From the NCBI RefSeq assembly GCF_013167455.1, contig NZ_CP038328.1: a stretch of 64,000 nt of DNA; one strand, given 5' to 3'. The position numbers and the translations under genes are program-made. This stretch comes from Escherichia coli O157:H7. Its GTDB lineage: Bacteria; Pseudomonadota; Gammaproteobacteria; Enterobacterales; Enterobacteriaceae. Shown in pieces: positions 24,394 through 25,845 of this stretch (positions are counted from its first letter, which is position 1; each line of letters starts with the position of its first letter). The notes under the pieces were generated by a model. It was not told the DNA's origin, made no database searches, and saw nothing but the letters and a program-made list of their open reading frames with translations.

Positions 24394-25845
24394 TCAACTA
24401 AACAACATCGCGATTTTGCCGAGAGCATAACCTATCACCAGCACCGTTAAGCTGATTTTGATAATGCTGGTAATGCTCTGTGGTTTTTCATCCTCATCAT
24501 TTTTTTCTTCATGGTTTTCAGGTGTTGGCTCATCGACATCTTCATCCTCCGGCTCGAGTTTTACTTTCGTCAACAGCATCCGGGTGATAATGGCCTCTAA
24601 TGGATGAGCATCTCCGCCTTCCAGCCTTGTATTAAGACGGGCCAGCATCTCTTGTTTCGGAAACGCTTCAAGTACTACCTGTTCCGCTACCCGATACAAA
24701 TCCAGTAACGGTGAATCTTCTTCTGTCTCGCTACCGACTCTCGATTTCCACCACGCCCATGCTTTGCGTTTGAAGAATAGCGACTCAATAAACGATTGAC
24801 CTAACGGCGATAGTTTTCCGCTATGTAAAATTTCCGCCCATAACAGACGCGTCCGGGCGCTCTCACCAGGAACATATTTCAACGGTTTACCTTGCGCATC
24901 TACCATGCTCCGCGCTTCGATAACCATCACTAATAACGCGAAATAATCCGGGCAATGTTGTGCGCTCCACTGCAACAACAAATTATCGGCTTGTGTAGAT
25001 GGGTAACTTCCCCAGTACGCGCAGAGATCGGTAAGCAGGCTTTCCCCCTCGCCGCAGTACAAACGTTGTGCACACTGGTAATACCGGGCATCTTCGCTTT
25101 CTGGTTCTTCCATTTGCCACTGTTCGGCTACAGGAATGAGTTCCGCCATACCTGTTTGCACCGAGCTGTACCAGCGCAACAGTTTGCGATGTAACTTTGC
25201 ATCATCAGGAATGAACCACGGACCTTCCATCGCCAAAAACGCAGTGACATAGTCAGGATGGTAACGGCAGCAACGTTCCAGCGCGAAGTAATACTCAACA
25301 GTCTGGTTCTGCAACGCAACGGGATATACCAGAAGGCCAAGGAAATCGAAACAATCACCAGCCTGAATGGCCTCAAGAAAAGCCTCCCTTTCTTACTCAT
25401 CTATTCCTTCGCTGTCATTAAACGAATGCCAGTTCAAACGCTCTGCCAGCAAAGAAGCACAATTTAATGAAAGATATCGCGCTTCTATAGCGATTGCACA
25501 CAGCGGCCAGCGTAATTGATCGACATCCTCCATGTTCCAGGTATTTAATTGCTGAATAAATTTCTGCCAGGCGGAGGGCTGAAAACGATCACTTTCTGAA
25601 TCCAGTAATGCCCTGAATACACGTAGTATTTCATGCTCAGTGGCATCATCTTTTTCTTCATCATCTGCTTCCTCGACAGGATTTACCGCCAGTCGCAGGG
25701 CCTCTTCATAGGCCTGGCGTAATGCTTTAAACCCTTGCGGATCGGTTTCGGGATGACATAACGGTAAGCGAGCAAGATAAGCCTGGCGGATAATGTCTAT
25801 TTGCGTCGTGCTTTCAATTTCGAGGATTTGCCAACATGTTTTCAT
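24394..25845 (-). pseudogene. djlC: J-domain co-chaperone DjlC (YbeV) interrupted by an in-frame TAA
   Basis: One frame encodes 150 aa, then a TAA (plus-strand tta at 25393-25395), then 332 more codons; total 483 codons. The aligned djlB residue is Glu (EIDEEELE vs GIDE*ERE), suggesting GAA to TAA. C-terminal hydrophobic tail anchor. Confidence 0.7.

Follow-up and report, generated by a model that had tools for sequence, protein, structure and literature searches.

The djlC gene in the 64,000-nt stretch of DNA analysed here (hereafter the window) is interrupted by an in-frame ochre codon, which raises the question of whether the gene has been inactivated by an inherited nonsense mutation, or whether the stop codon is an error, is decoded, or has given rise to a split gene that works in a new form. 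DjlC is the J-domain partner of HscC, a specialised Hsp70 whose ATPase it stimulates (PMC8215388; the stimulation by K-12 DjlC is credited there to Kluck et al. 2002), and DjlB, the paralog of DjlC, is assumed to stimulate HscC likewise (PMC8215388). Both J-domain proteins are tail-anchored, and membrane insertion of DjlC has been shown, according to the citation of Peschke et al. 2018 in the same article (PMC8215388). Deletion of hscC, or of djlB and djlC together, results in Cd2+ sensitivity, and none of the three proteins reaches the detection limit of proteomics during exponential growth (PMC8215388).

The interrupted gene is djlC, as the initial annotation had it: it lies between ybeU and hscC, displays 96.8% DNA identity to K-12 djlC (46 differences in 1452 nt, without a single indel) and carries the name djlC in RefSeq. 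It is 100% identical to the djlC gene ("co-chaperone DjlC") of EDL933, TW14359, EC4115, Xuzhou21 and dozens more O157:H7 strains, those of the Sakai type included, and the window is, as judged from its sequence, an O157:H7-type chromosome. The gene order leuS, ybeL, ybeQ, ybeR, djlB, ybeT, ybeU, djlC, hscC, rihA, gltLKJI is the same in EDL933, O55:H7 DEC5B and K-12, and agrees with the open reading frames of the window (Table 1). The gene therefore occupies the orthologous position in the leuS to gltL region, overlapping ybeU and convergent with hscC. The overlap between the ybeU stop codon and the djlC start codon (ATGA) suggests that the two genes are co-transcribed and translationally coupled. 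Since the ybeU–djlC unit ends with djlC, which is convergent with hscC, a polar effect of the stop codon on other genes is not expected. Note that the window also contains seven tRNA genes (10121-10826, plus strand; Met, Leu, Gln, Gln, Met, Gln, Gln), which have normal anticodons and include no suppressor; we take this cluster to be the ordinary metT-leuW-glnUW-metU-glnVX operon.

Table 1. Features of the djlC locus and of its surroundings (window coordinates)
Feature	Position	Strand	Description	Basis
djlC (ybeV) pseudogene	24394..25845	-	483 codon positions and natural stop; frame broken at codon 151	Translation
Premature ochre codon (TAA), codon 151	25393..25395	-	Ancestral GAA (Glu); G-to-T at 25395	
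N-terminal ORF, still translatable	25396..25845 (with TAA: 25393..25845)	-	150 aa; contains the J-domain region	ORF list
In-frame remnant 3' of the stop	24397..25392	-	332 codons; without J domain	Translation
Natural djlC stop	24396-24394	-	Remnant ends ...GKIAMLFS	
C-terminal hydrophobic tail anchor	roughly 24477-24397	-	Inside the remnant	Translation, comparison with K-12
Codon 148 of djlC	25402..25404	-	ATA (Ile), not ATG (Met)	Allele comparison
ybeU	25842..26549	-	DUF1266; intact; upstream of djlC	ORF list, EDL933 annotation
hscC	22664..24334	+	Intact; codes for the Hsp70 paired with DjlC; convergent with djlC	ORF list, annotation
djlB	27215..28642	-	Intact 475-aa paralog	ORF list, annotation, BLASTP
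ybeQ	29511-30488	+	Sel1/TPR-repeat protein of the hscC-djlB-djlC cluster; in-frame TAG at 29664-29666	

The initial annotation had described the frame as 150 codons, TAA and 332 further codons, giving the 483 codons of an intact DjlC, and had proposed a single GAA-to-TAA change on the grounds that DjlB has a glutamate at the aligned position. Translation of the minus strand bore out every one of these counts: 150 sense codons, ending with ...SEGIDE, are followed by TAA and then by 332 codons in the same frame. K-12 MG1655 djlC is uninterrupted (1452 nt, 483 aa) and has GAA at codon 151, where the uninterrupted 483-codon frame is broken in the window. The same GAA was found in all six intact alleles sampled (K-12, O26:H11 FWSEC0001, AR_0019, 14EC033, 100416 and 20AR0192), and the intact orthologs are a single open reading frame at this position rather than two. 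By contrast, codon 151 is TAA in EDL933 and in O55:H7 DEC5B. In the BLASTP alignment of K-12 DjlC with the DjlB of the window (49% identity over 483 aa), GMDEEERE of DjlC is matched to EIDEEELE of DjlB, so that the paralog has Glu as well. The stop codon is thus one mutational step away from the sense codon of the intact orthologs and, as all intact alleles examined have GAA, the lesion is a single G-to-T transversion; both the mutation and its ancestral state can be read directly from these alleles. Among the intact alleles found, that of 14EC033/100416 is the nearest (98.4% identical); it combines ATA at codon 148 with GAA at codon 151, and the 57-mer with both codons occurs in 11 genomes. 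Since ATA is also present in intact alleles, the codon 148 substitution is older than the stop codon.

The distribution of the lesion was likewise directly observable. The exact 57-mer centred on TAA is present in 308 of 5,426 complete E. coli genomes, and the remaining matches sampled differ from it by at least two mismatches. When the whole of djlC is considered, 309 genomes display at least 99% identity to the window, after which identity drops sharply to 97.6%; the additional genome presumably has a further SNP within the 57-mer. Among the examples listed, the carriers of TAA are of the O157:H7 type, with the addition of O55:H7 DEC5B, i.e. the lesion is clonally shared. The djlC gene of DEC5B differs from that of the window by one base at an unrelated site (gene position 564) and has the same TAA. 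Given its presence in O55:H7 DEC5B, the stop codon is probably older than the O55-to-O157 antigen switch.

The lesion is already known at the annotation level. Indeed, RefSeq/PGAP flags djlC as a pseudogene with an "internal stop" in both EDL933 (EDL933_RS33055) and DEC5B (E3156_RS18420), and the 150-aa fragment corresponds to the old Sakai ORF ECs0687. In the protein collection, the exact 150-aa product is found on at least 1000 contigs, one of its names being "hypothetical protein ECs0687", and the downstream 306-aa ORF is found on 711 contigs. Literature searches on ybeV in O157 and on the locus tags ECs0687, ECs0688, Z0796 and Z0797 retrieved no paper discussing the O157 djlC stop. The feature is an ordinary nonsense pseudogene, fixed in its lineage and already annotated.

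We then considered what the stop codon removes from the protein. The Pfam DnaJ family (PF00226) matches residues 4-47 (roughly window positions 25836-25705), albeit weakly (i-E 0.036, for K-12 DjlC), and we assign a J domain to DjlC because the literature does so (PMC8215388). A scan of both djlC fragments, K-12 DjlC and DjlB against NCBIfam returned no family match. The J-domain signature is HPE instead of the canonical HPD, both in DjlC (LCHPETDP; 25752-25760, minus strand) and in DjlB (SFHPETDP); by their signatures, the J domains of the two proteins are atypical. The tail-anchor sequence present in the remnant is identical to that of K-12 DjlC and lies within the 332 codons downstream from the stop, and the stop codon parts the J-domain region from the C-terminal region and the membrane anchor, as the initial annotation had proposed. 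Being 3' of the premature stop, the anchor is not expected to be translated.

Several observations bear on the importance of djlC to E. coli. No djlC match was found in 1,049 of the 5,426 complete genomes (about 19%). Moreover, BL21 (NZ_CP170101.1) has a djlC gene without its 5' end, EC291 keeps 9% of the gene, and other truncated forms of DjlC are frequent among public sequences: a 164-aa form that ends in unrelated sequence is found on 209 contigs, and forms of 207 aa and 238 aa, the latter resulting from a frameshift, also occur. C-terminal djlC ORFs of 278 and 239 aa are also found among public proteins. The variety of the breakpoints (frameshift, junction with foreign sequence, 5' deletion) indicates that these disruptions arose independently and that loss of djlC is recurrent. 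Because about 19% of the genomes have no match and independent truncations are found elsewhere, djlC appears to be dispensable. Where intact, it is nevertheless a real gene, as recognized by the purifying selection acting on it: pN/pS among intact alleles is 0.11-0.24. Comparisons involving the O157 allele gave values of 0.18-0.39 (these rely on few substitutions, with five distinct intact alleles as references), and, among the alleles sampled, nine substitutions are unique to the O157 allele, only one of which is synonymous. The raised pN/pS of this allele would fit some relaxation of constraint, although the numbers involved are small.

The cluster contains a second lesion of the same kind. 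Codon 52 of ybeQ is TAG in the window vs TGG (Trp) in K-12; in both EDL933 and O55:H7 DEC5B, the RefSeq annotation treats ybeQ as a pseudogene with an 'internal stop', and 298 complete genomes contain the exact 57-mer around the TAG. Two nonsense knockouts are thus present in one seven-gene cluster of the O55:H7/O157:H7 lineage. A role of the hscC cluster as a known anti-phage system was also considered and dropped: a PADLOC scan of HscC, DjlC, YbeU, YbeT and DjlB gave nothing except a sub-threshold PtuA match for YbeT (E 0.0022), and the literature yielded nothing new on HscC and phage defence and nothing related on DUF1266.

Could the stop codon be an artefact, or be without effect on the protein made? 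An error of sequencing or assembly is a general possibility for any such codon, and nothing more specific speaks for it; the identical sequence occurs in the 308 complete assemblies, which are independent and come from many laboratories and platforms, and the number of contigs encoding the exact 150-aa product tells the same way. The initial annotation had named a sense codon in the sequencing reads as the result that would overturn it, and with the same TAA in hundreds of independent assemblies we regard the chance of an error as negligible. Decoding of the TAA, be it through ochre suppression, programmed readthrough or another form of recoding, would allow full-length DjlC to be made, and the downstream frame is indeed fully open over its 332 codons. 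An open frame is, however, to be expected when a nonsense mutation is very recent. In E. coli, TAA terminates translation efficiently, the tRNAs detected in the window by a tRNA scan are ordinary Met, Leu and Gln tRNAs alone, the sequence shows no evident recoding signal, and PGAP calls the gene a pseudogene; synthesis of full-length DjlC is thus extremely improbable.

It could also be envisaged that the split djlC gene is functional in a new form, as a selected change: the N-terminal fragment would act as a soluble, untethered co-chaperone of HscC or exert a dominant-negative regulation, or else re-initiation would give rise to a separate C-terminal product. The N-terminal ORF does retain its start codon, its coupling to ybeU and the entire J-domain region, the allele is perfectly conserved in about 300 genomes, and the knockout of ybeQ in the same lineage could hint at a directed remodelling of the cluster. 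The conservation is, however, uninformative in a lineage that is very young and clonal, a single SNP separating the djlC genes of O55:H7 and O157:H7. As for the C-terminal part, no ATG that follows the stop codon in frame is preceded by a plausible ribosome-binding site: the in-frame start candidates begin with a TTG at codon 178, followed by an ATG at codon 206, and the longest in-frame ORF downstream starts from the TTG at 25314. The sole Shine-Dalgarno-like site nearby (AGGGAGG, just 3' of the stop) occurs in intact alleles too and is placed for an out-of-frame TTG, leaving re-initiation of the C-terminal part unsupported. A 90-aa out-of-frame ORF (25128-25400, minus strand) lies near this AGGGAGG; it starts from an ATG that straddles codons 149-150 (gATGAg), extends across the sequence that follows the stop codon, and is most likely a chance ORF. 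Finally, the independent truncations and the absence of djlC from a sizeable share of genomes point to simple dispensability. Nothing favours a new function of the J-domain fragment over neutral decay, and a functional split is, in our opinion, highly improbable. Much the same holds for a broader scenario, in which djlC E151* and ybeQ W52* together would stem from a remodelling of the HscC chaperone module, favoured by selection in the ancestor of O55:H7 and O157:H7: HscC would have kept DjlB as its sole partner, and a soluble 150-aa J-domain fragment could freely modulate HscC. We consider this scenario improbable.

The reading that we favour, and hold to be very likely, is the inherited nonsense mutation: a GAA-to-TAA change at codon 151, transmitted vertically, would have knocked out djlC in the ancestor from which the O55:H7/O157:H7 clone descends, with DjlB and HscC probably covering its function. 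Translation would end after residue 150 and produce at most a soluble fragment comprising the J-domain region, devoid of the remaining 332 residues and of the C-terminal tail by which DjlC is anchored in the inner membrane. The most likely consequence would be the loss of a membrane-anchored co-chaperone of HscC, which would thereby be deprived of DjlC-mediated membrane targeting in this lineage. What function remains is probably covered by DjlB and HscC, both encoded by intact genes, DjlB being the probable backup for DjlC. We infer that the loss of DjlC function, compensated for by DjlB, reflects the neutral decay of a dispensable gene. The 150-aa fragment could be stable and active, or it could be degraded. 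As a J domain can, in principle, stimulate the ATPase of an Hsp70 even when free, we only infer that the loss of DjlC function is complete.

The djlC stop adds one more lineage-specific pseudogene to those of O157:H7 and carries little weight beyond bookkeeping. It could serve as a clonal marker common to O157:H7 and O55:H7. In addition, O157:H7 strains are naturally mutated in djlC (and ybeQ), which may be of minor practical use in studies of HscC, DjlB and DjlC, a system that is poorly understood: deletion of djlB alone in this background should mimic the K-12 djlB djlC double mutant.

The closest system for comparison is K-12 DjlC (YbeV, Hsc56), a class C J-domain protein that is tail-anchored and serves the Hsp70 HscC as co-chaperone. 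The gene of the window resembles it in locus, length and frame, as well as in the N-terminal J-domain region and the C-terminal hydrophobic tail sequence, and differs from it by the TAA that replaces GAA at codon 151, which leaves residues 1-150 alone translatable. The 22 further amino-acid differences from K-12 DjlC are consistent with allelic divergence (Nd 23.0). The djlC pseudogene of EDL933 is identical to the allele of the window, and that of DEC5B, one base apart, has the same internal stop. DjlB (YbeS), encoded in the same cluster, shares the architecture of DjlC over its full length (49% identity); unlike the DjlC of the window, it is intact (475 aa) both there and in EDL933, and its gene is paired with ybeR, not with ybeU. 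In the other djlC disruptions found in E. coli, the same gene is inactivated, but their positions and mechanisms differ from those of the E151 nonsense mutation.
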